Shown here piece by piece: positions 1 through 12,244 of a DNA stretch of 12,244 nt. The DNA lies in the IMG/VR virus record IMGVR_UViG_2681813321_000010. One strand, written 5' to 3'. The translations under genes were made by a program, and so were the position numbers. The stretch is from a virus. Taxonomy: Duplodnaviria; Heunggongvirae; Uroviricota; Caudoviricetes. The first letter of the stretch is position 1; the number at the start of each line of letters is the position of its first letter. The notes below the pieces were generated by a model. It saw only the letters and a list, made by a program, of their open reading frames with translations, made no database searches and was not told the DNA's origin.

Positions 1-135
1 TGCCTGGTGCCTCCAGGTGACGTTAACCAGTTAACAATTAACGCCGGATACAGAGAATCCACCCATAACACTGTTTTTGGTTTTAACTGTTCCGCGTGCG
101 CTCAGCCGCATTCACCGCATCACAAAATTCACTTT

Positions 136-193
136 AAAAACGGCGGCAGAGCAGTCACGGAGTAAAACTGATACCGCCAAACGTCACCAGAAA
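136..193 (-). ncRNA. dicF: DicF small RNA (cell-division inhibitor sRNA) with intrinsic terminator
   Basis: Minus-strand sequence TTTCTGGTGACGTTTGGCGGTATCAGTTTTACTCCGTGACTGCTCTGCCGCCGTTTTT matches my recollection of E. coli DicF; GGCGG/CCGCC stem followed by a T-run; located downstream of ydfC as in Qin. Confidence 0.8.
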
Positions 194-533
194 ATTGATA
201 ACAGAGGGCGTTGCAGCGGGGTTGTCGCTTAAGCGTATGGTCAACCTGACAACCCGGTGTCCTCAACGGGGAAGGAATAACCCCGCCATACTTACCGCCG
301 CGCCATTTCGCGGAGTGCCACAACCGGAAGCGCACGGTCGACGAAAATTTAACGACAGGCTATCTATGAACCAGCTACCTCGCCGTGCGCTTTCGCGTTA
401 TGGTCTGACTTTTCATGGAAATATCCTTTCAGTAAACTGTCAGTGCCGGATGCTCACCCATGTCCGGCGCACGCACTCCACCTCACCCGTGGAGAACTCC
501 TTAATTACCAACCTTAGCTTCGTTGGTTAGCTA

Positions 534-752
534 TTAACGCGGGTATGTAATCATTCTGGCAATGCTTAATGCCGCTGCTTTTTCCAGCCTGGTGATATCC
601 TGCTCCAGAGCGGACAGATTTTCAGCCTGCTTAGCCCTGGCTTCATTGGCCCATTTCAGATCCTGCGCTGCATTAATTTTCTGGCGCATCCACTCATAAA
701 GTTCATCATCGGTATAGTCTGGCGAGATGATGACGGGTTCTCGTTTCTGCAT
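534..752 (-). CDS. ydfC: YdfC, 72-aa Qin-type prophage protein
   Basis: 72-aa ORF in the track; GAGG ribosome-binding site upstream of the ATG; size and position after ydfB match the dicB operon. Confidence 0.8.
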   Translation of the reverse strand: MQKREPVIISPDYTDDELYEWMRQKINAAQDLKWANEARAKQAENLSALEQDITRLEKAAALSIARMITYPR

Positions 753-781
753 ACTGATTCCTCGCGGTGCTGCTTCGCTTA

Positions 782-910
782 TCAGCCGTTAGATTTTGCC
801 GAGCTGGAAAGCGCCTGTTTAAACTCACTGAAGCTGAGAGCTTCTTCGCCTTCGGCAAGGCCTTCGAAGTATTCTTCGTAAGCCTTTTCCATGATTGTGT
901 CGAAATCCAT
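782..910 (-). CDS. ydfB: YdfB, 42-aa small protein (below the ORF-track size cutoff)
   Basis: Manual translation of the minus strand gives MDFDTIMEKAYEEYFEGLAEGEEALSFSEFKQALSSSAKSNG; its ATG overlaps the ydfA stop (TGATATG); 42 aa matches known YdfB length. Confidence 0.75.
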   Translation of the reverse strand: MDFDTIMEKAYEEYFEGLAEGEEALSFSEFKQALSSSAKSNG

Positions 911-911
911 A

Positions 912-1067
912 TCACTCACCTGAGTTTCTTTCCAGCCAGCGACGGGCACCATTTTCGGTTTTAAACGTTTTGCTTCTGGTATACGTCATCGCGGTAAACG
1001 TGCCGTCCTGGTTGGGAAACACGCCGTACACCAGAGATTCGTTGTTGCCAAGATCGATAGTATCCAT
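912..1067 (-). CDS. ydfA: YdfA, 51-aa small protein
   Basis: Internal ATG of the 69-aa track ORF with a GAGG ribosome-binding site gives MDTIDLGNNESLVYGVFPNQDGTFTAMTYTRSKTFKTENGARRWLERNSGE; 51 aa matches YdfA; first gene after dicA as in Qin. Confidence 0.8.
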   Translation of the reverse strand: MDTIDLGNNESLVYGVFPNQDGTFTAMTYTRSKTFKTENGARRWLERNSGE

Positions 1068-1147
1068 GCTGACCTCATTTCCCCTTAACGCTGGGGTAGC
1101 GGAACTGTTTGCTGAGAACACCGTGCGGTGTGTTGATGCAAATAAGA

Positions 1148-1200
1148 TTAGCCATGGCTAACATATAGGTCAAGTGATTTTGTATGTTATGGCTAACATG
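1148..1200. promoter_or_regulatory. Putative DicA operator pair in the dicA-ydfA intergenic region (dicB-operon promoter region)
   Basis: Perfect palindrome TTAGCCATGGCTAA (1148-1161) and ATGTTA-TGGC-TAACAT (1185-1200) share TTAG/CTAA half-sites with the dicA-dicC intergenic palindromes. Confidence 0.5.
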
Positions 1201-1233
1201 ATTGATGTGGTAAAAGATAACTCATTGATGATG

Positions 1234-1641
1234 TTATCTTTTATTTGTCCGCTGACGGGCTTTTAGTAATTCTTCAAAGAGTTTATTGAAGTTTTTTACT
1301 CGAGCTCGCATTTCGGCGAGCTGGGTATCCTGTTCTGATTCTGGCAGTGCATTAAACAGCTCAAGGAGCTCTAGTTCTTTGGGGGATAAGGCAACTGGCT
1401 TCTCAACAGGTGGTGTTGGTTGCTTGTCTTCATCGCCAAATAGAATCCATGTTGGTGAGCATTGCAATACTTTGCTGAGGGCAAAAAGGTTCTTCCCTGT
1501 AGGTTCACTATCATCCCGTTCCCATTGTGATACAGACACATGGGAGATTTTCAGGGCTTTAGCAAGAGACCTTTGGGTGTGTTTGAGGTTTTTCCGACGA
1601 TACCTAATGCGTTCGCCGATAGTTAAATTTTTTGTTTCCAT
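1234..1641 (-). CDS. dicA: DicA, HTH (Xre-family) repressor of the dicB operon; CI-like immunity repressor
   Basis: 135-aa product METKNLTIGERIRYRRKNLKHTQRSLAKALKISHVSVSQWE... matches my recollection of E. coli K-12 DicA; N-terminal HTH; divergent from dicC. Confidence 0.92.
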   Translation of the reverse strand: METKNLTIGERIRYRRKNLKHTQRSLAKALKISHVSVSQWERDDSEPTGKNLFALSKVLQCSPTWILFGDEDKQPTPPVEKPVALSPKELELLELFNALPESEQDTQLAEMRARVKNFNKLFEELLKARQRTNKR

Positions 1642-1643
1642 AG

Positions 1644-1708
1644 TTAGCTAATGCTAAATCGTATTGACTATGTTTTTGTTAACATCTATTTTGTTAGTTA
1701 TGACTAAC
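1644..1708. promoter_or_regulatory. dicA-dicC divergent control region: two operator palindromes and a candidate rightward promoter
   Basis: TTAGC-TAAT-GCTAA (1644-1657) abuts the dicA start codon; TTGACT (1664-1669), 17-bp spacer, TATTTT (1687-1692); GTTAGT-TATG-ACTAAC (1693-1708) just downstream of the -10. Confidence 0.55.
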
Positions 1709-1724
1709 AATAAAGGTGTTTTAA

Positions 1725-1955
1725 ATGCTTAAAACTGACGCTCTTTTGTATTTCGGTTCAAAAACAAAACTTGCACAAGCAGCAGGTATTCGTTTGGCTT
1801 CGCTTTATAGCTGGAAAGGGGATTTAGTTCCCGAAGGTCGCGCGATGCGTCTACAGGAGGCATCTGGCGGGGAGCTTCAGTATGATCCCAAAGTTTATGA
1901 TGAATATCGTAAGACGAAGCGGGCGGGGCGGTTGAACAATGAAAATCACTCCTGA
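1725..1955 (+). CDS. dicC: DicC, Cro-like regulator
   Basis: 76-aa product MLKTDALLYFGSKTKLAQAAGIRLASLYSWKGDLVPEGRAMRLQEASGGELQYDPKVYDEYRK... matches my recollection of DicC; divergent from dicA. Confidence 0.9.
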   Translation: MLKTDALLYFGSKTKLAQAAGIRLASLYSWKGDLVPEGRAMRLQEASGGELQYDPKVYDEYRKTKRAGRLNNENHS

Positions 1956-2460
1956 ACAGGCTCGTGAGGCTCTGGATGCCTGGATATGTCGACCAGGAAT
2001 GACACAGGAGCAGGCGACGATATTAATCACTGAAGCATTCTGGGCTTTGAAAGAGCGCCCGAACATCGATGTTCAGCGTGTCACAGATGAAGGTGGCGCG
2101 GTTGATCAGCGAGCGCTTGGCGTTAATCGAGTGAAGATATTCGAACGCTGGAAGGCTATCGACACCAGGGATAAGCGTGAAAAGTTCACGGCGCTAGTGC
2201 CTGCGATTATGGAGGCTATCCGGATTAGTGATTTCAGGTTGTATCGTGAGATCAGTGATGGAAAAAGTATTACGTACATGATCGCCGGGTTAAATAAAGA
2301 ATATGGCGATGTGGTGGAATCCGGACTGCTTTTTGCAGATCCTGCCGTTGTAGATCGTGAAACTGACGAACTTATAGAAAAAGCAATTGCTTTCAAGCTT
2401 GCGTATCGACAGCAATACCAACAAAAAGCTGGATGGAATTATGAGTCTTCTTTTTGCTGA
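1939..2460 (+). CDS. YdaT-like protein in the CII position (putative regulator)
   Basis: 173-aa ORF overlapping the dicC 3' end; segment VKIFERWKAIDTRDKREKFTALVPAIMEAI resembles the YdaT-family core as I recall it; family assignment is from memory only. Confidence 0.6.
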   Translation: MKITPEQAREALDAWICRPGMTQEQATILITEAFWALKERPNIDVQRVTDEGGAVDQRALGVNRVKIFERWKAIDTRDKREKFTALVPAIMEAIRISDFRLYREISDGKSITYMIAGLNKEYGDVVESGLLFADPAVVDRETDELIEKAIAFKLAYRQQYQQKAGWNYESSFC

Positions 2461-3406
2461 ACGCCCACTGGTTATAAACACGCAGCTGGCAATGAAAATT
2501 GGCTTAAACGAAGCCATTGTTTTGCAACAACTGCACTACTGGTTGAGAGATACCAACTCCGGCATGGAATGTGATGGTGTTCGCTGGATTTATAACACAA
2601 CGGAACAATGGCTGGAACAGTTCCCATTCTGGTCAGAGTCAACGTTAAAGCGCGCGTTTGCAAGTCTGAAAACGCTGGGGCTTTTGCGTTGTGAAAAGCT
2701 CAATAAATCAAAGCGCGATATGACCAATTTCTACACGATCAACTACGGGAGCGAGCTTTTAGATGGTGGCAAATTGAGCGAATCCATCGGTTTAAAATGC
2801 GCCGCTCCATCAGGTCAAAATGACACGATGGAAGAGGTCAAAATGAAACGCTCCATTGGTTCAAAACGACTCAATGTCATCGGGTCAAAATGGCCTGATG
2901 ATCTTACAGAGAATACAACAGAGATTACTACAGAGAATAAAAAGACTTCTCGTCCGGAAGCTTCGCAACCGGACCCGCAGACGGTTGAACAGGATTTTTT
3001 AACCCGACACCCTGACGCGGTTGTGTTCAGTGCGAAAAAACGCCAGTGGGGCAGCCAGGAAGATTTGGCGTGTGCGCAGTGGATCTGGGGGCGAATCGTG
3101 AGTCTTTACGAGCAGGCCGCCAGCGATGATGGCGAGATTTCGCGACCGAAAGAACCCAACTGGACCGCATGGGCCAACGACGTGCGCACAATGCGGATGC
3201 TGGATGGCAGAACTCACAGACAAATTTGTGAAATGTTTGGTCGGGTGCAGCGGGATCCATTCTGGGTAAAAAATATCATGAGTCCGTCAAAGCTTCGCGA
3301 AAAATGGGATGAACTGGTTATCCGCCTGGGGCGTTCGTCTGTACAGCGTTGTGTGAATCATATTTCTGAGCCGGATACCGAAATTCCGCCGGGCTTCAGG
3401 GGGTAA
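2441..3406 (+). CDS. Replication initiator, lambda O-like (N-terminal DNA-binding domain, TE-rich linker, C-terminal domain)
   Basis: Track ORF begins at TTG 2387; the ATG at 2441 overlaps the upstream stop (ATGAGTCTT...TGA) and is the likelier start; contains iterons plus an AT-rich tract inside the coding sequence, as lambda O does. Confidence 0.75.
   Translation: MSLLFAERPLVINTQLAMKIGLNEAIVLQQLHYWLRDTNSGMECDGVRWIYNTTEQWLEQFPFWSESTLKRAFASLKTLGLLRCEKLNKSKRDMTNFYTINYGSELLDGGKLSESIGLKCAAPSGQNDTMEEVKMKRSIGSKRLNVIGSKWPDDLTENTTEITTENKKTSRPEASQPDPQTVEQDFLTRHPDAVVFSAKKRQWGSQEDLACAQWIWGRIVSLYEQAASDDGEISRPKEPNWTAWANDVRTMRMLDGRTHRQICEMFGRVQRDPFWVKNIMSPSKLREKWDELVIRLGRSSVQRCVNHISEPDTEIPPGFRG
2783..2941 (+). 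repeat. Putative replication origin inside the O-like gene: five iterons followed by three 12-bp A-rich repeats
   Basis: Iterons of consensus about TCCATCGGGTCAAAATG starting at 2783, 2806, 2829, 2852, 2876 (23-24 bp period); then ACAGAGAATACA / ACAGAGATTACT / ACAGAGAATAAA at 2906-2941. Confidence 0.7.
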
Positions 3407-3446
3407 GTGTTAATTTCTGGTCATGAGGTAATTTTCAGGAGGGCTT

Positions 3447-3869
3447 GTGGCAAAAGTTTTTACACAAGAAGAGCGGGAAAAAATTAAAGGGCAGGTTGTT
3501 GAACTCGTACGCCGGAGTGGGCGTGAGACGTTACGGCAACTGGAAGTCAAGACAGGTGCGACAAGATATCTGATGAGCGTTCTCGCAAGAGAGCTGGTTG
3601 CCAGCGGCGATGTATACAACTCTGGTTACGGGTTATTCCCGTCTGAACAGGCGCGTAAGGACTGGCAAAATGCCCGTAAAAAGCTCTCAAGGGCAAAGCT
3701 GAAGGAACCATCTGCGGTTGATCCGGACCTTATCTGGTCATTACCTGACGGAGAAATACGTCGCTACGACAGGCGTCAGAACATAATCTGTCGCGAGTGC
3801 CGGAAGAGTGAAGTTATGCAGCGCATACTAGCATTCTATCAGGGAAATGCTCGATATTTATTGAAGTGA
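3447..3869 (+). CDS. Hypothetical 140-aa protein in the P position after the initiator (C-terminal CxxC)
   Basis: GTG start 4 nt after AGGAGG (3437-3442); the paralog at 7824 has ATG at the same relative position after AGGAGG; conserved between the two modules. Confidence 0.75.
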   Translation: MAKVFTQEEREKIKGQVVELVRRSGRETLRQLEVKTGATRYLMSVLARELVASGDVYNSGYGLFPSEQARKDWQNARKKLSRAKLKEPSAVDPDLIWSLPDGEIRRYDRRQNIICRECRKSEVMQRILAFYQGNARYLLK

Positions 3870-4121
3870 TGAGATTAAAGTTTATTAGTTCAGATATTGA
3901 TTGGCTCTTTTGTGGAGTAGGGTAGAGTTAGTGTGTTTGTCTGCTTGGTGCCAGCAGCGGATATGTTTAACAACAGAAAGCATTCAGCATGGTTAGTGGA
4001 TTTGCAAAGTGGATTAGGATTTGAGAAACTTTGATGAAGTTGTAAAGCTTGTTTCTATAAAAATAGAAATTTAACTAATAGTTAAACACACCTCCAGCTT
4101 CATTGAAAAGGATTATTAGCT

Positions 4122-4547
4122 ATGATTGATCCACTTATTAGAAACTTACAGAGTGATATTGCACTACTCCAGCTTTATATCGCGCAACGCAAACAGGCAG
4201 GCTTTCATGACATGGAAAGAATAATTGAGTCATTGACCATCTTTATGTTTCGCGCGCTGAAAATGGGTGAACTGGTAAACATGAATCAGATTAAAGTTAA
4301 TTTTCCCGCCATTGATTTAGCTGATAATAAAAACATGATAGCAGTTCAAGTTACTACGAATGCAAGTCCAGCAAAAATTAAAAAAACTATCGAATCTTTT
4401 GAGAAAATAAATGAAATAGGAGAGAGTCTGAAAGATAAATACTCTACTTTATATATTTTTGGTTTTAACTGTTCCGCGTGCGCTCAGCCGCATTCACCGC
4501 ATCACAAAATTCACTTTAAAAACGGCGGCAGAGCAGTCACGGAGTAA
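4122..4547 (+). pseudogene. Probable 5' fragment of an AT-rich cargo gene, truncated at the repeat junction (about 4456); the ORF tail runs into the dicF region
   Basis: Strongly AT-rich codons up to 4455, then the last ~30 codons lie in repeat sequence whose copy-1 equivalent (74-165) is preceded by unrelated DNA; ORF end overlaps dicF copy 2 on the opposite strand. Confidence 0.45.
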
Positions 4548-4575
4548 AACTGATACCGCCAAACGTCACCAGAAA
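4518..4575 (-). ncRNA. dicF: DicF small RNA, second copy
   Basis: Identical to 136-193 at offset 4382; in this copy the repeat ends about 60 bp downstream of the terminator, so no dicB can follow. Confidence 0.8.
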
Positions 4576-4915
4576 ATTGATAACAGAGGGCGTTGCAGCG
4601 GGGTTGTCGCTTAAGCGTATGGTCAACCTGACAACCCGGTGTCCTCAACGGGGAAGGAATAACCCCGCCATACTTACCGCCGCGCCATTTCGCGGAGTGC
4701 CACAACCGGAAGCGCACGGTCGACGAAAATTTAACGACAGGCTATCTATGAACCAGCTACCTCGCCGTGCGCTTTCGCGTTATGGTCTGACTTTTCATGG
4801 AAATATCCTTTCAGTAAACTGTCAGTGCCGGATGCTCACCCATGTCCGGCGCACGCACTCCACCTCACCCGTGGAGAACTCCTTAATTACCAACCTTAGC
4901 TTCGTTGGTTAGCTA

Positions 4916-5134
4916 TTAACGCGGGTATGTAATCATTCTGGCAATGCTTAATGCCGCTGCTTTTTCCAGCCTGGTGATATCCTGCTCCAGAGCGGACAGA
5001 TTTTCAGCCTGCTTAGCCCTGGCTTCATTGGCCCATTTCAGATCCTGCGCTGCATTAATTTTCTGGCGCATCCACTCATAAAGTTCATCATCGGTATAGT
5101 CTGGCGAGATGATGACGGGTTCTCGTTTCTGCAT
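4916..5134 (-). CDS. ydfC: YdfC, second copy
   Basis: 72-aa ORF identical in protein to 534-752. Confidence 0.8.
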   Translation of the reverse strand: MQKREPVIISPDYTDDELYEWMRQKINAAQDLKWANEARAKQAENLSALEQDITRLEKAAALSIARMITYPR

Positions 5135-5163
5135 ACTGATTCCTCGCGGTGCTGCTTCGCTTA

Positions 5164-5292
5164 TCAGCCGTTAGATTTTGCCGAGCTGGAAAGCGCCTGT
5201 TTAAACTCACTGAAGCTGAGAGCTTCTTCGCCTTCGGCAAGGCCTTCGAAGTATTCTTCGTAAGCCTTTTCCATGATTGTGTCGAAATCCAT
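5164..5292 (-). CDS. ydfB: YdfB, second copy (42 aa)
   Basis: DNA identical to 782-910 at offset 4382. Confidence 0.75.
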   Translation of the reverse strand: MDFDTIMEKAYEEYFEGLAEGEEALSFSEFKQALSSSAKSNG

Positions 5293-5293
5293 A

Positions 5294-5449
5294 TCACTCA
5301 CCTGAGTTTCTTTCCAGCCAGCGACGGGCACCATTTTCGGTTTTAAACGTTTTGCTTCTGGTATACGTCATCGCGGTAAACGTGCCGTCCTGGTTGGGAA
5401 ACACGCCGCATACCAGAGATTCGTTGTTGCCAAGATCGATAGTATTCAT
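5294..5449 (-). CDS. ydfA: YdfA, second copy (51 aa, two substitutions relative to copy 1)
   Basis: Same internal ATG as copy 1; product MNTIDLGNNESLVCGVFPNQ... Confidence 0.8.
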   Translation of the reverse strand: MNTIDLGNNESLVCGVFPNQDGTFTAMTYTRSKTFKTENGARRWLERNSGE

Positions 5450-5529
5450 GCTGACCTCATTTCCCCTTAACGCCGGGGTAGCGGAACTGTTTGCTGAGAA
5501 CACCGTGCGGTGTCTTGGTGGAGATTAAT

Positions 5530-5579
5530 TTAGAATAACCTAACAAATGTAGCAAGTATTTTTGTTAGATTGGTCTAAC
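5530..5579. promoter_or_regulatory. Putative operator pair downstream of the dicA-like gene (module 2 leftward-operon control region)
   Basis: TTAGAATAACCTAA (5530-5543) and palindrome GTTAGA-TTGG-TCTAAC (5564-5579); same TTAG/CTAA half-site logic as module 1. Confidence 0.45.
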
Positions 5580-5616
5580 AAAAAGAGTGAGGGAATCTAA
5601 GTATCTGAAAGGAGTG

Positions 5617-6024
5617 TTATTTTATTGATTTGTTTTTACGTGCTTTAAGCATTTCTTCGAAGAGTTTATTGAAATTCTCTACTCTTGCGCGCATTTCAGA
5701 CAGTAAGGCTTCCTGCTCGGAGGAGGGAAGAGCATCGAATAATTCGATCAATTCTTTGTGGCTGGGAGTTAACTCGGTTTCCACATGAAGTTCTTGTGCT
5801 GGCACTGGTGCCTTGTCTTCGTCACCAAACATTAGCCATGTAGGCGAGCACTTCAGCGCATCAGCTAAAGCAAATAACCGCTTCCCGACCGGTTGGGTTT
5901 CGTCTCTTTCCCATTGTGAAATTGTGACGTGAGCTACCCCAGCGAGGCGTGCAGCTTCTCGTTGTGTTAGGCGTAATTCTTTTCGTCGTGCCAGAACTCG
6001 CTGGCCTAGGGTTCTTGTATCCAT
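5617..6024 (-). CDS. DicA-like HTH repressor, divergent paralog (CI-like immunity repressor of module 2)
   Basis: 135 aa; C-terminal half nearly identical to DicA (...CSPTW..FGDEDK...EMRARV.NFNKLFEE.LKAR), N-terminal HTH diverged (QREAARLAGVAHVTISQWE). Confidence 0.85.
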   Translation of the reverse strand: MDTRTLGQRVLARRKELRLTQREAARLAGVAHVTISQWERDETQPVGKRLFALADALKCSPTWLMFGDEDKAPVPAQELHVETELTPSHKELIELFDALPSSEQEALLSEMRARVENFNKLFEEMLKARKNKSIK

Positions 6025-6030
6025 AGTTAG

Positions 6031-6090
6031 GTAATTCTAATTTTTCTTGACTTAGGTATCCCGCGCACATTACTGTTAGGAATATCTAAC
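6031..6090. promoter_or_regulatory. Module 2 divergent control region with operator palindromes
   Basis: TTAGGTAATTCTAA (6031-6044) abuts the dicA-like start; TTGACT at 6047-6052; GTTAGGAATATCTAAC (6075-6090) precedes the dicC-like gene. Confidence 0.45.
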
Positions 6091-6104
6091 AAGAGGGGGC
6101 TTTG

Positions 6105-6332
6105 ATGCTTAAAGTTGACGCAATTACTTTTTTTGGCAGCAAAACAAAACTTGCCAATGCCGCAGGAGTGAAACTGGCAAGTGTTGCTGCATGGGGGGAA
6201 CTGGTTCCTGAAGGTCGCGCGATGCGCCTGCAAGAGGCATCCGGCGGGGAACTTCAGTACGACCCCAAAGTTTATGACGAATATCGTAAGGCAAAGCGGG
6301 CGGGGCGGTTGAACAATGAAAATCACCCCTGA
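6105..6332 (+). CDS. DicC-like Cro-type regulator (paralog)
   Basis: Track ORF starts at TTG 6102; ATG at 6105 preceded by GAGGGGG; product about 85% identical to DicC by eye. Confidence 0.85.
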   Translation: MLKVDAITFFGSKTKLANAAGVKLASVAAWGELVPEGRAMRLQEASGGELQYDPKVYDEYRKAKRAGRLNNENHP

Positions 6333-6837
6333 ACAGGTTTGTGAGGCTCTGGATGCCTGGGTATGCCGACCAGGAATGACACAGGAGCAGGCGACGATAT
6401 TAATCACGGAAGCATTCTGGGCTCTGAAAGAACGCCCGAACATCGATGTTCAACGCGTCACGTTTAATGATGGCGAGGTTGATCAACGGGCGTTGGGCGT
6501 TAACCGGGTGAAGATATTCGAACGCTGGAAAGCTATCGACACCAGGGATAAGCGGGAAAAATTCACGGCGCTGATTCCGGCAATTATGGAGGCTATCCGG
6601 ATCAGCGATTTCAGGTTGTATTGTGAAATTACTGACGGAAAAAGCATTACGTACATGATCGCCGGGTTAAACAAAGAATATGGTGATGTGGTGGAGTCCG
6701 GGCTGCTTTTTGCGGATCCATCTGTTGTGGAACGTGAGACTGACGAGCTTATAGAAAAAGCTATTGCTTTCAAGCATGCGTATCGTCAGCAATACCAACA
6801 AAAAGCTGGATGGAATTATGAGCCTTCTTTTTGCTGA
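6316..6837 (+). CDS. YdaT-like protein in the CII position (paralog of 1939-2460)
   Basis: 173 aa, roughly 90% identical by eye to the module 1 copy; same overlap arrangement with neighbouring genes. Confidence 0.6.
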   Translation: MKITPEQVCEALDAWVCRPGMTQEQATILITEAFWALKERPNIDVQRVTFNDGEVDQRALGVNRVKIFERWKAIDTRDKREKFTALIPAIMEAIRISDFRLYCEITDGKSITYMIAGLNKEYGDVVESGLLFADPSVVERETDELIEKAIAFKHAYRQQYQQKAGWNYEPSFC

Positions 6838-7783
6838 ACGCCCACTGGTTATAAACACACAGCTTGCGATGAAGATTGGCTTAAATGAAGCCATTGTGTT
6901 GCAGCAGTTGCATTACTGGTTGAGAGATACCAGTTCCGGTATGGAATGTGACGGGGTTCGCTGGATTTATAACACAACAGAACAATGGCTGGAACAGTTC
7001 CCGTTCTGGTCAGAGTCAACGTTAAAACGCGCATTTGCAAGTCTGAAAACGCTGGGGCTTTTGCGTTGCGAAAAGCTCAACAAATCAAAGCGTGATATGA
7101 CTAATTTTTACACGATTAATTACGAGAGTGAGCTTTTAGATGGTGGCAAAGTGAGCGAATCCATCAGGTCAAAATGCGCCGCTCCATCGGGTCAAAATGA
7201 CACGATGGAAGAGGTCAAAATGGCACGCTCCATTGGTTCAAAACGACCCAATGTCATCGGGTCAAAATGGCCTGATGATCTTACAGAGAATACAACAGAG
7301 ATTACTACAGAGAATAAAAACACTTCTCGTCCGGAAGCTTCGCAACCGGACCCGCAGACGGCTGAACAGGATTTTTTAACCCGACACCCTGACGCGGTTG
7401 TGTTCAGTGCGAAAAAACGCCAGTGGGGAAGTCAGGAAGATTTGGCGTGCGCACAGTGGATCTGGGGACGAATCGTGAGTCTTTACGAGCAGGCTGCCAG
7501 CGATGATGGCGAGATCACGCGACCGAAAGAACCAAACTGGACCGCATGGGCCAATGACGTGCGCACAATGCGGATGCTGGATGGCAGAAGCCACAGACAA
7601 ATTTGCGAAATGTTTGGTCGGGTACAGCGAGATCCATTCTGGGTAAAAAACATCATGAGCCCGTCAAAGCTTCGCGAAAAATGGGACGACCTGGTCATCC
7701 GCCTGGGGCGTTCACCTGTACAGTGTTGTGTGAATCATATTTCTGAACCGGATACCGAAATTCCGCCTGGTTTCAGGGGATAA
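6818..7783 (+). CDS. Replication initiator, lambda O-like (paralog)
   Basis: ATG at 6818 overlaps the upstream stop exactly as in module 1; carries the equivalent iterons. Confidence 0.75.
   Translation: MSLLFAERPLVINTQLAMKIGLNEAIVLQQLHYWLRDTSSGMECDGVRWIYNTTEQWLEQFPFWSESTLKRAFASLKTLGLLRCEKLNKSKRDMTNFYTINYESELLDGGKVSESIRSKCAAPSGQNDTMEEVKMARSIGSKRPNVIGSKWPDDLTENTTEITTENKNTSRPEASQPDPQTAEQDFLTRHPDAVVFSAKKRQWGSQEDLACAQWIWGRIVSLYEQAASDDGEITRPKEPNWTAWANDVRTMRMLDGRSHRQICEMFGRVQRDPFWVKNIMSPSKLREKWDDLVIRLGRSPVQCCVNHISEPDTEIPPGFRG
7160..7318 (+). repeat. Putative replication origin of module 2 (five iterons plus A-rich 12-bp repeats)
   Basis: Iterons begin at 7160, 7183, 7206, 7229, 7253, the same positions as module 1 at offset 4377. 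Confidence 0.7.
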
Positions 7784-7823
7784 GTGGTGATTTTAGGGCA
7801 TAAAGTAATGTTCAGGAGGACTT

Positions 7824-8231
7824 ATGGCAAAAGTATTTACACAGGAAGAGCGGGAAAAAATTAAAGGACAGGTGGTGGAACTCGTGCGCCAGAGCGGTCG
7901 TGAGACGTTACGGCAACTGGAAGCTAAAACAGGTGCGACAAGATATCTGATGAGCGTTCTTGCCAGAGAGCTGGTTGCCAGTGGTGATGTATATCACTCT
8001 GGCTATGGGGTGTTCCCGTCAGAACGGGCTCGTAAGGACTGGCAAAACGCCCGCAAAAAACTCTCGAGGGCAAAGGTGAAGAAACCTGTTGTGGTTGATC
8101 CGGGCCTTATCTGGACATTACCCGACGGAGAAATACGCCGCTACGACAGGCGTATGAACATAATCTGTCGCGAGTGCCGGAAGAGCGAAGTTATGCAGCG
8201 TGTATTGGCGTTCTATCAGGGATATGCCTAG
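7824..8231 (+). CDS. Hypothetical 135-aa protein in the P position (paralog of 3447-3869)
   Basis: ATG 4 nt after AGGAGG; about 90% identical by eye to the module 1 copy. Confidence 0.75.
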   Translation: MAKVFTQEEREKIKGQVVELVRQSGRETLRQLEAKTGATRYLMSVLARELVASGDVYHSGYGVFPSERARKDWQNARKKLSRAKVKKPVVVDPGLIWTLPDGEIRRYDRRMNIICRECRKSEVMQRVLAFYQGYA

Positions 8232-8599
8232 AATTGTCACAGGTAATGAAATTAAAGAGTATTGGTTCGGATATGAATTGACATTTTCGCGGCACAGAGC
8301 TAAAAATAGCCTACTTGTTGGTTTTGTGTGAAAAGCAGACATTTTGAGGCTCAGGATTTGTTATCAAATAAGACCAATACTTATCTATATTAATACACAT
8401 TAAATACTGTGCAATACATTATTGCATTTTATTAGATAAGCGATATTTAGGGAAAAGAAAAGTCATAGAAAACAGGCCGCTATTTGTTGTTGGATTTTAT
8501 AGGCTATATCTAGATTATCTTGCCACTGCGGTCTCTGTTTACCTAACAGCTTGGGCTTCTTTGCATGCAAGTTTGTAATAACAAGAGTAATCAAACGGA

Positions 8600-9631
8600 A
8601 TGTCTATTAATCCTAAACTTAAGCGTATCGCGCGACGCTATCCAGCGTTATTCCAATATGAGTCCCCCTATATGGCAAGAAAATTAATAATATTCGGCAA
8701 CGGTCTCGGTATGGCTTTAGATCCTGCTCACTTCTCCTTAGACAGAGCGTTGGAAGAAATTTGGCATCGCCCCAATTTTTTAAAAGATATCCACAAGCAA
8801 CTTATCGAGCGTTGTCTTCAGCGGCAAGGTCCACCAGAAGGAGAACATGAGTTGGATACCCTTCACCAGGCTGTCACATATTGTAAAGCTCTTGCTCAAA
8901 TTGGAGAGGGGAACGTGCATTGGCTTACTGAAGATGGACTAAACTTCCCCAAAATTACCGCCACTTATATTCACAAAGTTGCAACCAGGTTGCATAATTA
9001 CGATAAAGGTTTGCCACAAAGATTCGAAAATGCGCTTGTGGAGTTTGTAAAGAACACACACTCACATATCGCGACATTAAACTATGACAAATTATTATAC
9101 AATTCATTCATAGATAATGATATATTCAACGGGTATGATGGGGTTTTAGTTGATGGGATGCTAAGCCACGGATTTTCCTCTGCAGCGCTCGAACGGAAAT
9201 ACAATCGTAGGTTTGGTTATTATTTGCACTTGCATGGTTCACCACTATTTATTAATCAGCATGAAAATGTTTTAAAACTTTCACGCTCACAACTTACTCT
9301 TGACATAGATGAACCTAGTGAGCATATAGTGTTAACTCATATAAAAAGAAAACCGTCAGTTATAGCAGCATCTAATGTTCTTTCTACGTACTGGGATTAT
9401 TTGCAGTTTGCATTATTTGAATCAGAAGAAATAATATTGTTTGGTTACTCTGGTCTCGATATTCACCTTAACCTGCTTATTCGACCTTACCTAACCTCTA
9501 AGCCTTTAAGAGTAATTGAGTGGAGCGGTGCTGGTGAACAAAACGCTCGTGAGATATATTGGAAAAACCAGTTGAGACGGGAAGTTACTGTAATTAGGTT
9601 GGATAACATCACTGATTTTATTGATTGGTAG
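8600..9631 (+). CDS. SIR2-like (SIR2_2-type) single-domain protein, candidate NAD-consuming defence or abortive-infection effector
   Basis: 343 aa, AT-rich codon usage; ordered motifs LIIFGNGLG (Rossmann-like), TLNYDKL (sirtuin-type N/D), YLHLHGS (His), ILFGYSGLD, in the same order as SIR2-like domains such as Thoeris ThsA; preceded by about 370 bp of AT-rich DNA. Confidence 0.6.
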   Translation: MSINPKLKRIARRYPALFQYESPYMARKLIIFGNGLGMALDPAHFSLDRALEEIWHRPNFLKDIHKQLIERCLQRQGPPEGEHELDTLHQAVTYCKALAQIGEGNVHWLTEDGLNFPKITATYIHKVATRLHNYDKGLPQRFENALVEFVKNTHSHIATLNYDKLLYNSFIDNDIFNGYDGVLVDGMLSHGFSSAALERKYNRRFGYYLHLHGSPLFINQHENVLKLSRSQLTLDIDEPSEHIVLTHIKRKPSVIAASNVLSTYWDYLQFALFESEEIILFGYSGLDIHLNLLIRPYLTSKPLRVIEWSGAGEQNAREIYWKNQLRREVTVIRLDNITDFIDW

Positions 9632-9701
9632 CGCAATGCGAAGTTAAAGAGGCAGCCTCATATTTATCAGAGCTGGTGTACGTCCAATACAGGAGGTTAT
9701 C

Positions 9702-9791
9702 GTGCTGGTTCTCAAATGCGCGCTGGCTATTGCGGCTGTAGTGGCAATTTATTGTCTTGCTATTGTTCTTATGGATCGCCTTTCTGATTGA
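9702..9791 (+). CDS. Candidate 29-aa hydrophobic single-helix peptide (VLVLKCALAIAAVVAIYCLAIVLMDRLSD)
   Basis: GTG start 5 nt after a perfect AGGAGG (9691-9696); uniformly hydrophobic core of about 20 residues; below the ORF-track size cutoff. Confidence 0.4.
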   Translation: MLVLKCALAIAAVVAIYCLAIVLMDRLSD

Positions 9792-10002
9792 TTTTATATT
9801 GGCGAGGTGACGGGAGTTAAGTAGAATTGCTGCGGGTGCTTGAGGCTGTCTGCCTCGGGCATGCCACCGTAAGGCAGACAGAGAAAAGCCCCAGTTAACA
9901 TTACGCGTCCTGCAAGACGCTTAACATTAATCTGAGGCCCAATCTATGCTTCACAAACGTAGGTTAGCCTCTTACGCGCCGAAAGGCAAGGAGAAGCAGG
10001 CT

Positions 10003-10158
10003 ATGAAGCAGCAAAAGGCGATGTTAATCGCCCTGATCGTCATCTGTTTAACCGTCATAGTGACGGCACTGGTAACGAGGAAAGACCTCTGCGAGGTACG
10101 AATCCGAACCGGCCAGACGGAGGTCGCTGTCTTCACAGCTTACGAACCTGAGGAGTAA
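10003..10158 (+). CDS. hokD: HokD (RelF), Hok/Gef-family type I membrane toxin
   Basis: MKQQKAMLIALIVICLTVIVTALVTRKDLCEVRIRTGQTEVAVFTAYEPEE matches my recollection of HokD and the Hok signature (TRK.LCE.R...G..EVA.F.AYE); the track ORF from 9946 is an in-frame upstream extension. Confidence 0.85.
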   Translation: MKQQKAMLIALIVICLTVIVTALVTRKDLCEVRIRTGQTEVAVFTAYEPEE

Positions 10159-10226
10159 GAGACCAGGCGGGGGAGAAATCCCTCGCCACCGCTGATGTGT
10201 CAGGCATCCTCAACGCACCCGCACTT

Positions 10227-10253
10227 AACCCGCTTCGGCGGGTTTTTGTTTTT
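10227..10253 (+). terminator. Intrinsic terminator after hokD
   Basis: CCCGC-TTCG-GCGGG stem-loop (10229-10242) followed by TTTTTGTTTTT. Confidence 0.8.
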
Positions 10254-10266
10254 ATTTTCAACGCAT

Positions 10267-10296
10267 TTGAAGTTCTGGACGGTGTCGGAATAGAAT
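10267..10296 (+). promoter_or_regulatory. Candidate sigma70 promoter for the 83-aa gene
   Basis: TTGAAG (10267-10272), 18-bp spacer, TAGAAT (10291-10296); lies just after the hokD terminator. Confidence 0.4.
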
Positions 10297-10374
10297 CAAA
10301 AATACTTAAGTAGCGCGCAGGGATAAGAGGGATGGTCCCTTAAAGGGGAGAGCTAATTATCCGGAAGGATTCTG

Positions 10375-10626
10375 ATGATGAACATCGAAGAACTGCGTAA
10401 AATTTTTTGTGAAGATGGCCTCTATGCTGTGTGCGTTGAAAATGGAAATATTGTTAGTCATTACCGCATTGTGTGTTTGCGAAAGAATGGGGCTGCGTTA
10501 ATTAATTTTGTGGATGGTCGAGTGACAGACGGATTTATCTTGCGCGAAGGTGAGTTTGTCACTTCATTACAGGCACTGAAAGAGATCGGAATAAAAGCTG
10601 GCTTTTCTGCTTTTTCAGAAGAATAA
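10375..10626 (+). CDS. 83-aa hypothetical prophage protein, possibly the Rem homolog
   Basis: GGAAGG 6 nt upstream of the ATG; same size as Rem (83 aa) and same position between hokD and the ydfU-like gene as in Qin; I cannot recall the Rem sequence to confirm. Confidence 0.65.
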   Translation: MMNIEELRKIFCEDGLYAVCVENGNIVSHYRIVCLRKNGAALINFVDGRVTDGFILREGEFVTSLQALKEIGIKAGFSAFSEE

Positions 10627-10692
10627 ACTCATCTACAATCTTGCGCGGGGCTGAACTCCCGCTGAGTAACACCGTGCCGCCGGAGGAAACCG

Positions 10693-10971
10693 ATGGCACG
10701 CAACGCAAAATATTACAATCATGATAATTCGACCGTTCTTGCCCACACGCACGAGCGGTATTCTCACGCATTTAAGTCAGACTGGTACCAGCATCCCCCA
10801 TGCACTGAAGAACAGGCCGAATGGCTCATTCAGTGTTACCGCAGGCGCGGATGCGAGGTTAAAAAAGCCCTTAGCCTCGACTACCGTCACTGGATAATCT
10901 CCGTCGGGCTTCCTTACTCCGAACGCCCACCGCGTCTGTCCCGCACATTCCAGCAACGCATCTGGAGGTAA
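10693..10971 (+). CDS. 92-aa hypothetical protein
   Basis: GGAGG 7 nt upstream of the ATG; stop immediately precedes the next gene's start. Confidence 0.6.
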   Translation: MARNAKYYNHDNSTVLAHTHERYSHAFKSDWYQHPPCTEEQAEWLIQCYRRRGCEVKKALSLDYRHWIISVGLPYSERPPRLSRTFQQRIWR

Positions 10972-10972
10972 C

Positions 10973-12022
10973 GTGCGGGTATTACTTCGACCTGTTCTGG
11001 TACCGGAACTCGGGCTGGTGGTCCTTAAGCCCGGTCGCGAATCACTGCCGGTTTTTCATTGCGGCAGGGTGCTGGTGGAGCCGGAACCGAAAAGCATGCG
11101 CGGTCTGCCGTCCGGAGTCGTCCCTGCCGTTCGCCAGCCGCTGGCGGAGGATAAATCATTACTGCCATTTTTCAGCGATGAGCGTGTGATTCGTGCTGCT
11201 GGCGGCGCTGGCGCACTGTCTGACTGGCTCCTGCGTCATGTCAAATCCTGCCAGTGGCCTCATGGTGACTACCATCACAGTGAAACCGTCATACATCGTT
11301 ATGGTACCGGCGCAATGGTGTTGTGCTGGCACTGCGACAACCAGCTGCGCGACCAGACCTCCGAATCACTCGGGCAACTTGCTCACCAAAACCTGTCTGC
11401 ATGGATGATTGACGTCATACGCCATGCAATGAATGGCTCGCAGGAACGGGAATTATCGCTGGCTGAATTATCCTGGTGGGCGATCCGCAATCAGGTGGCG
11501 GACGCGCTACCGGAAGCGGTATTACGTCGTTCGCTGGGGTTGCGTGCGGAAAAAATCCGCTCAATGTACCGTGAAAGCGACATCGTACCGGGAGAGCAGA
11601 CCGCCACCAGCATACTGAAACAGCGCACAAAAAATCTTGCGCCGCTGCCTCACGCCCACCAGCAACAGAACCCGCCACAGGAAAAGACGGTGGTCAGCAT
11701 TGCTGTTGATCCGGAGTCTCCGGAATCTTTAATGAAGCGACCTAAACGTCGCCGTTGGGTAAATGAGAAATATACGCGCTGGGTAAAGACACAGCCGTGT
11801 GCGTGTTGTGGTAAGCCAGCCGACGATCCCCATCACCTGATTGGTCATGGTCAGGGCGGAATAGGGACAAAAGCCCACGATATTTTCACGCTACCGTTGT
11901 GCCGGGAGCATCACAACGAACTTCATGCTGATCCGCTGGCATTTGAAGAAAAGCATGGTTCCCAGATTGATTTAATTTTTCGTTTTCTTGATCGCGCCTT
12001 TGCAACCGGCGTGCTCGGGTAA
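10973..12022 (+). CDS. DUF968-family prophage protein (YdfU-like) with a C-terminal HNH-like Cys/His motif
   Basis: 349 aa; GTG start after GGAGG; C-terminus CACCGKPADDPHHLIGHG...LPLCREHHNELHA resembles HNH/zinc-binding nuclease motifs; size and synteny match Qin ydfU. Confidence 0.7.
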   Translation: MRVLLRPVLVPELGLVVLKPGRESLPVFHCGRVLVEPEPKSMRGLPSGVVPAVRQPLAEDKSLLPFFSDERVIRAAGGAGALSDWLLRHVKSCQWPHGDYHHSETVIHRYGTGAMVLCWHCDNQLRDQTSESLGQLAHQNLSAWMIDVIRHAMNGSQERELSLAELSWWAIRNQVADALPEAVLRRSLGLRAEKIRSMYRESDIVPGEQTATSILKQRTKNLAPLPHAHQQQNPPQEKTVVSIAVDPESPESLMKRPKRRRWVNEKYTRWVKTQPCACCGKPADDPHHLIGHGQGGIGTKAHDIFTLPLCREHHNELHADPLAFEEKHGSQIDLIFRFLDRAFATGVLG

Positions 12023-12034
12023 AAGAGGTTACTG

Positions 12035-12244
12035 ATGCGTATAGAGTTTGTTTTGCCTTACCCGCCGACGGTGAACACCTACTGGCGACGTCGTGGCAGC
12101 ACATATTTTGTGTCAAAAGCCGGTGAGCGTTATCGCCGGGATGTGGCACTTATTGTTCGCCAGCAGCGGCTGAAATTAAACCTGTCCGGAAGGCTGGCGA
12201 TAAAGATTATTGCAGAGCCACCGGATAAGCGCCGCCGCGACCTG
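12035..12244 (+). CDS. rusA: RusA-family Holliday-junction resolvase, 5' partial (runs off the window end)
   Basis: MRIEFVLPYPPTVNTYWRRRG...YRRDVALIV...IKIIAEPPDKRRRDL matches the RusA N-terminal pattern (P..N.Y....G......YR..VA.I......I.I....PD.RRRDLDN); AGAGG ribosome-binding site. Confidence 0.8.
   Translation, partial: MRIEFVLPYPPTVNTYWRRRGSTYFVSKAGERYRRDVALIVRQQRLKLNLSGRLAIKIIAEPPDKRRRDL

Follow-up and report, generated by a model that had tools for sequence, protein, structure and literature searches.

A probable truncated SMEK-domain gene remnant at a microhomology junction between two lambdoid prophage modules

Introduction

Chimeric lambdoid prophages arise in Escherichia coli by recombination between prophages, for example in O157 lineages. 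Neighbouring prophages commonly undergo deletion at microhomologies, where amplification chimeras also form. The locus described here resembles the chimeric lambdoid prophages of E. coli in that co-resident prophages have apparently exchanged DNA in early-region blocks, here the 97%-identical ydfABC-dicF block. It differs from them in that the second junction is illegitimate, falling in an 11-nt microhomology, and in that the immunity and replication module is duplicated rather than swapped.

The gene cut at this second junction belongs to the SMEK family. According to the SPARDA preprint, the Mrr-like effectors of clade S2B short Argonaute (pAgo) systems are those "annotated as SMEK" (bioRxiv 10.1101/2023.06.08.544223). 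The SMEK family shares with the Mrr-APAZ short pAgo effectors a homologous N-terminal Mrr/SMEK nuclease domain, whereas an unrelated bundle of helices makes up its C-terminal half. A literature search returned nothing relevant on SMEK_N (PF21941, NF033859) or "SPARMA".

The DNA analyzed here, referred to as the window, is a stretch of 12,244 nt from a virus record of IMG/VR (IMGVR_UViG_2681813321_000010), with module 1 on its left and module 2 on its right. Two prophages of E. coli O111:H2 12A represent the parents: prophage A (L003), which bears the SMEK gene and lies at 2.13 Mb on the + strand, and prophage B (L004), which bears a SIR2 gene and lies at 3.37 Mb on the - strand. Both parental sequences are present at 100% identity in each of the genomes 12A and FDAARGOS_1059.

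Identity of the ORF at 4122-4547

A 141-aa ORF with an ATG start and the C-terminal tail NCSACAQPHSPHHKIHFKNGGRAVTE was identified at 4122-4547 on the + strand. The following features belong to it:

3870-4121, + strand: leader of the SMEK gene, AT-rich and intergenic, native to prophage A (34.5% G+C)
4108-4112: Shine-Dalgarno sequence AAGGA of the SMEK fragment, 9 nt before the ATG
4122-4466, + strand: native 5' fragment of the SMEK gene, codons 1-115 of 299, defined by nucleotide identity and SMEK_N matches
4467-4547, + strand: non-native tail, codons 116-141 and the TAA stop, antisense of the DicF 3' flank and DicF

The initial annotation described the ORF as AT-rich up to about 4455 and then running on through repeat sequence, and the composition agrees with this. 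The G+C content is 33.8% over 4122-4455 (334 nt) vs 52.1% over 4456-4760, and the repeat begins at 4456. The same annotation held that no family could be assigned from sequence alone. The ORF, however, matches SMEK_N above the curated cut-offs of both Pfam (27 bits) and NCBIfam (30 bits). The Pfam model is matched with 80.8 bits (residues 9-114, profile positions 2-102 of 140) and the NCBIfam model with 107.9 bits (residues 5-96, profile positions 3-94 of 97). The shorter NCBIfam model is almost wholly covered, and the Pfam domain is incomplete, ending at profile position 102.

The first 345 nt of the ORF (115 codons) are 100% identical to the gene of WP_000566848.1 (L001:6253-7152), a 900-nt gene of DicA/Qin-type lambdoid prophages, present for example in E. 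coli C7 and O111:H2 12A, whose 299-aa product is annotated as "SMEK domain-containing protein". The leader is also 100% identical to the DNA upstream of the intact gene in these two genomes, and the start codon and the position after a DUF977 gene are the same. The window copy differs in that codons 116-299 are missing and 26 unrelated codons stand in their place. Past ...STLYIFGF the intact gene continues with CKASRYLT..., and the ORF with NCSACAQP.... The last three to four of the 115 native residues are encoded by the 11-nt microhomology, which is common to both parents. The native part had been taken for the N-terminal region of a larger protein, with a length of 112 residues; the larger protein exists (299 aa), and the native part is 115 residues long. 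The tail at 4467-4547 is 100% identical to prophage B and unlike the intact SMEK gene.

We conclude that the ORF is very probably a remnant, the promoter-proximal 345 nt of a prophage accessory gene, followed by a meaningless tail. The identity of the fragment, its breakpoint, its parents and the parts lost are all demonstrated here. Its correct label is a truncated chimeric SMEK-domain gene fragment (pseudogene), not a 141-aa protein. Truncation by recombination is an ordinary and known kind of event, and here it matters mainly for correct annotation.

The open frame and the proper stop codon are what one would expect of an intact short gene with its true C-terminus in the repeat, but this reading is refuted. 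Homologue searches found no protein that has both a length of about 140 aa and the tail, the GC3 shifts from 0.30 in the native part to 0.56 in the tail, and the tail is prophage B spacer DNA without SMEK context. The initial annotation was also right to regard the tail as probably fortuitous, since it is identical to that spacer and no homologue combines a SMEK part with it.

The intact SMEK gene and its distribution

The intact gene lies straight after the DUF977 gene in a DicA/DicC-type lambdoid prophage. It is followed on its 3' side by a convergent pair encoding a methyltransferase and a hypothetical protein, then by hokD, a DUF968 gene, rusA and Q. The pair, located at L003:8339-9700 (- strand) in prophage A, consists of a class I SAM-methyltransferase (weak PADLOC mad2 match, E = 8e-5) and a 231-aa protein without matches. 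This pair, which is missing from the window, could represent a second unit of cargo. Comparison with related genomes, which had been proposed as a check, shows that the gene diverges exactly at the repeat boundary.

The SMEK gene is carried in this slot of DicA-type lambdoid prophages by 151 of the 5426 complete E. coli genomes, with at least 80% of the gene present in all 151. The chimeric ORF as query yielded only fragments and tail-only spurious ORFs, and the homologue set was therefore built with the intact gene. This query retrieved more than 100 homologues, nearly all of about 293-301 aa with 96-100% of the query aligned, from Proteobacteria including Enterobacterales, Pseudomonas, Vibrio, Xanthomonas, Burkholderiales and others. 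The homologues thus reach well beyond 112 aa, as had been anticipated, with the identical E. coli gene at 299 aa. The window ORF shares the N-terminal region and the genomic slot of this SMEK plus helical-bundle family and lacks its conserved C-terminal domain; residues 116-141 are unrelated to it. Among deposited phage records, searched at the megablast level, only the DicF side was matched and no phage with this SMEK gene was found.

Two E. coli alleles annotated as "SMEK domain-containing protein" (P0001 and P0002, 119-120 aa) also end just after ...YIFGF, at the same T-rich site as the window ORF. Unlike the latter, they are not recombination products: a 1-nt deletion in a T5 run gives the end VKPQDT*, which was reproduced in silico. 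Gene copies of 899 nt, such as that in NZ_CP043217, provide a further example of this frameshift (...YIFGFVKPQDT*). The T-rich site GGTTTTTG (window 4456-4466; L001:6592-6599) is both the breakpoint and the frameshift site, and it looks like a small mutational hotspot.

The repeat, the junction and the parental prophages

The window contains a direct repeat of 953 nt. The features of the repeat and of the two junctions are as follows:

74-1026: repeat copy 1, pure B type, with all 26 B-specific differences from A (117-1002)
4456-5408: repeat copy 2, pure B type, with the DicF flank, dicF, ydfC, ydfB and part of a ydfA-like gene; 100% identical to 74-1026 and to L004
141-192, - strand: DicF sRNA, copy 1 (Rfam RF00039, 72.5 bits)
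4523-4574, - strand: DicF sRNA, copy 2, complete (Rfam RF00039, 72.5 bits, model positions 1-52 of 52)
1003-1026: homologous B-to-A switch interval, between the last A-discordant site (1002) and the first B-discordant site (1027)
4456-4466: crossover point in the 11-nt microhomology TTTTTGGTTTT, located by comparing the window with prophages A and B

The 73 nt ahead of copy 1 match those ahead of copy 2 at about 19 of 73 positions, which is the random level, and the earlier statement that the copy-1 counterpart of the tail follows unrelated DNA is correct. The string TTTTTGGTTTT occurs in the SMEK gene and, in prophage B, in the spacer 57-67 nt downstream of DicF; there it ends 57 nt downstream of the DicF 3' end, ahead of dicB. 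Around the breakpoint, prophage A reads ...TATATA-TTTTTGGTTTT-TGTAAAGCC, prophage B reads ...ACACTG-TTTTTGGTTTT-AACTGTTCC, and the window reads ...TATATA-TTTTTGGTTTT-AACTGTTCC. The switch therefore took place inside the microhomology at 4456-4466. The string that marks the rearrangement is CTACTTTATATATTTTTGGTTTTAACTGTTCCGCG.

Window positions 1-1026 are 100% prophage B, with 26 differences from A between sites 117 and 1002. Positions 1027-4466 are of A type apart from one SNP at 1710, and positions 4456-12244 are again 100% B. As judged from these alignments, the window represents a prophage B of the E. coli O111:H2 12A type with a 4382-bp insertion, not two independent prophages. The insertion is composed of the A segment 1027-4455 and a second copy of the 953-bp dicF-ydfCBA block of B, and its borders are a homologous junction at 1003-1026 and a microhomology junction at 4456-4466. 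The A segment contains dicA, dicC, a ydaT-like gene, a replication gene, the DUF977 gene and the truncated SMEK gene. Module 1 is a B/A hybrid whose left arm has all 26 B-type SNPs. Two CI/DicA-type repressors, unrelated in DNA and with cro-like partners, are encoded at 1234-1641 (- strand) and 5617-6024 (- strand).

The rearrangement is a singleton in the collections searched. A megablast search of 3870-4760 against the 5426 complete E. coli genomes gave no match spanning the whole query; it gave 100% matches to 3870-4466 under SMEK genes and separate DicF-side matches. In the same genomes, no locus covers both sides of the junction or of the predicted reciprocal junction (BLAST). Neither the junction nor its reciprocal is present in the GTDB representative genomes or in the viral and metagenome contigs, and the exact 141-aa product is absent from the protein collection.

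These absences, together with the separate and inverted positions of the parents in the closest genomes and the tendency of amplification chimeras to form at microhomologies, speak for an assembly or library artefact. Two prophages 1.2 Mb apart would then have been joined in a chimeric long read or by a template switch during amplification, and in the source genome the SMEK gene would be intact and prophage B normal. We consider such an artefact improbable because the two junctions, the homologous one and the microhomology one, form one coherent recombination product. It would also need both junctions and two perfect 953-nt repeat copies that were kept resolved. The private SNP at 1710 shows only that the source strain differs from 12A.

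Proposed route of the rearrangement

Taking the junction as real, illegitimate recombination or a template switch at TTTTTGGTTTT would have joined the SMEK fragment to the dicF-downstream spacer of a second lambdoid prophage. Beyond the junction the reading frame is open by chance over 26 codons, which read the DicF flank and DicF in antisense. We infer as the most economical route a single copy-choice or break-induced-replication event, which would change from B to A in the ydf region, where the two are 97% identical, and then return to B at the microhomology. The window starts only 73 nt left of the repeat, and the route cannot be fixed from the window alone. Homologous exchange between the inverted A and B prophages, giving a simple inversion, was rejected: it predicts A-type SNPs in the second ydf-dicF copy, and both copies are pure B.

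The same truncation could have come about through a deletion between adjacent or tandem prophages, an A with a B-like left arm followed by B, in which the late genes of A and the int-to-dicB region of B were removed through the 11-nt microhomology. This course of events is possible but rather unlikely. Such deletions between neighbouring prophages are common, and the window alone cannot show the DNA to the left of position 1. The DicB and DUF1482 proteins are identical between A and B in 12A, so the left arms exchange readily. The deletion, however, requires that A had already acquired all 26 B-type SNPs up to 1002 in a separate event, and among complete genomes no A prophage with such a left arm was found (best match, 99.6%). 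The prophages are also not adjacent in 12A or FDAARGOS_1059.

With the single-event route preferred, the window would be a clean example of co-resident lambdoid prophages being reshuffled by a homologous switch and an 11-nt microhomology switch. The two switches would together have yielded a prophage in which DicF and the immunity/replication module are each present twice and an accessory gene is cut short. Provided that it is real, this single contiguous element has dual immunity, with replication modules and DicF genes in two copies each.

Predicted structure and the parts removed by the cut

An AlphaFold2 model of the intact 299-aa protein was built from an alignment of 47 sequences (mean pLDDT 86). 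In this model, the N-terminal alpha/beta domain has helices at residues 2-25, 31-45, 83-94, 132-142 and 145-156 and strands at 66-68, 73-81, 109-118 and 127-130, and a helical C-terminal domain is predicted at 169-299. The alpha-beta-beta-beta-alpha-beta core resembles that of known nucleases with the PD-(D/E)xK (restriction-endonuclease-like) fold. The cut at residue 115 falls inside the modelled strand 109-118. Strand 127-130, the helices at 132-156 and the whole C-terminal domain lie beyond the cut and are lost.

A total of 26 alignment columns are invariant in the family, and 13 of them follow residue 115. Invariant residues of the C-terminal domain (about 160-299) include P166, D169, R182, E192, G193, K221 and K274. 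The nuclease-core invariants E36, D65, Q76, T78 and K85 are all retained in the fragment, and from their conservation they are candidate catalytic residues. For the chimeric 141-aa product, the model retains the native core with a pLDDT of 77-90, and the values over residues 111-141 fall from 68 down to 30 (tail 56, 42, 30).

The 141-aa product is most likely non-functional because the end of the nuclease domain, the C-terminal domain and half of the invariants are lost. The start codon, the Shine-Dalgarno sequence, the leader and the core invariants are kept, and some residual activity of the fragment is possible. These intact features and the well-modelled core also speak for a functional product, a deregulated stand-alone Mrr-like nuclease domain, or for a functional transcript that modulates both DicF copies by antisense. 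A function of either kind is nevertheless very unlikely. The C-terminal domain is kept in every one of the more than 100 homologues, and the fold of the fragment is incomplete because the Mrr-domain homology extends to residue 139. The arrangement of a SMEK fragment next to DicF recurs in no database searched.

Overlap with DicF and loss of dicB

Both DicF copies exceed the RF00039 gathering score of 48 over the full length of the model (1-52 of 52). The 3' end of the ORF overlaps DicF copy 2 on the opposite strand, as the initial annotation had stated, by 25 nt (4523-4547); the tail codons are an antisense reading of the DicF flank and DicF.

No protein that joins the SMEK part to the tail was found in the homologue search with the chimeric ORF. 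The proteins sharing the tail are only "hypothetical protein" calls of 79-200 aa, antisense to dicB-dicF and without the SMEK part. The strand antisense to dicB-dicF is open over long stretches (window 7-165 on the + strand and 4389-4547; P0012-P0019, e.g., "ybl82"). The hypothetical calls ending in the tail residues, which come from some older annotations, are probably spurious. RefSeq has no annotation on this antisense region.

Module 2 has kept ydfA, ydfB, ydfC and DicF and has lost dicB and everything beyond it. dicB and ydfD (L004:3705-3893) are missing to the left of window position 4456 because the junction falls between DicF and dicB. In module 1, the start of dicB is expected about 35 nt beyond the left end of the window.

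A scan for signals scored no sigma-70 consensus site in the leader 3870-4121, and neither the DNA ahead of the ORF nor that separating it from DicF gave a convincing promoter or terminator signal. With no terminator-like site scored before DicF, a read-through transcript of the SMEK fragment would therefore be antisense to DicF. This arrangement and the 25-nt overlap are the features that would favour an antisense role of the transcript. A regulatory effect of such read-through on DicF is speculative and highly improbable. Equally remote is the idea that the rearrangement made a new functional unit, a promoter-bearing and regulator-less Mrr-like fragment that serves as a sponge or antisense regulator of both DicF copies or as a constitutive mini-nuclease. 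If true, it would be a new unit inside a prophage with two different immunity modules.

Family relations and possible role of the intact protein

The SMEK family profile matches the Mrr domain of the Kordia jejudonensis Mrr-APAZ pAgo protein (PDB 26bh) with E = 4e-13 over positions 20-139, including the motif NFPAIDLAD...QVTS...K. The PADLOC Aga_REase model (PDLC02399) also gives a match, with E = 1.3e-20, in its N-terminal ~140 positions only (9-143 of 463). Even the intact 299-aa protein is accordingly not an APAZ fusion. No Argonaute (PIWI) gene was found next to the SMEK gene in E. coli prophage loci or in the Pseudomonas, Vibrio and Enterobacter neighbourhoods. Because an APAZ domain and a PIWI neighbour are both lacking, the SMEK plus helical-bundle family is not a member of the pAgo systems.

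The intact family is a single-gene module found both as prophage cargo and in islands that carry an integrase or a resolvase, in surroundings reminiscent of defence islands, and no conserved partner gene was found in the neighbourhoods examined. Abi_alpha, SLATT_5, SymE or AAA_13 genes are its neighbours. The most plausible role of the intact SMEK protein would be that of a defence or abortive-infection nuclease regulated through its C-terminal bundle. The earlier suggestion that the gene is possibly defence-related is reasonable in view of the homology of the N-terminal domain to the Mrr nuclease effector of short-Argonaute systems and the SIR2 gene in the corresponding slot of module 2. The intact 299-aa family is a candidate anti-phage gene, which is the sole point with real follow-up value.

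In module 2, the slot equivalent to that of the SMEK gene is occupied by a SIR2-family gene at 8600-9631 (+ strand; RefSeq start at 8672). The assignment is based on Pfam SIR2_2 and on weak matches to PADLOC Aga_SIR2, PDC-S21 and SIR2, and the gene is likely defence cargo. Downstream of it are a sok antisense RNA (Rfam, 116 bits) and a hokD-type toxin ORF, at 9834-10008 (+ strand) and 9946-10158 (+ strand). Such a hok/sok module is usual in these prophages.
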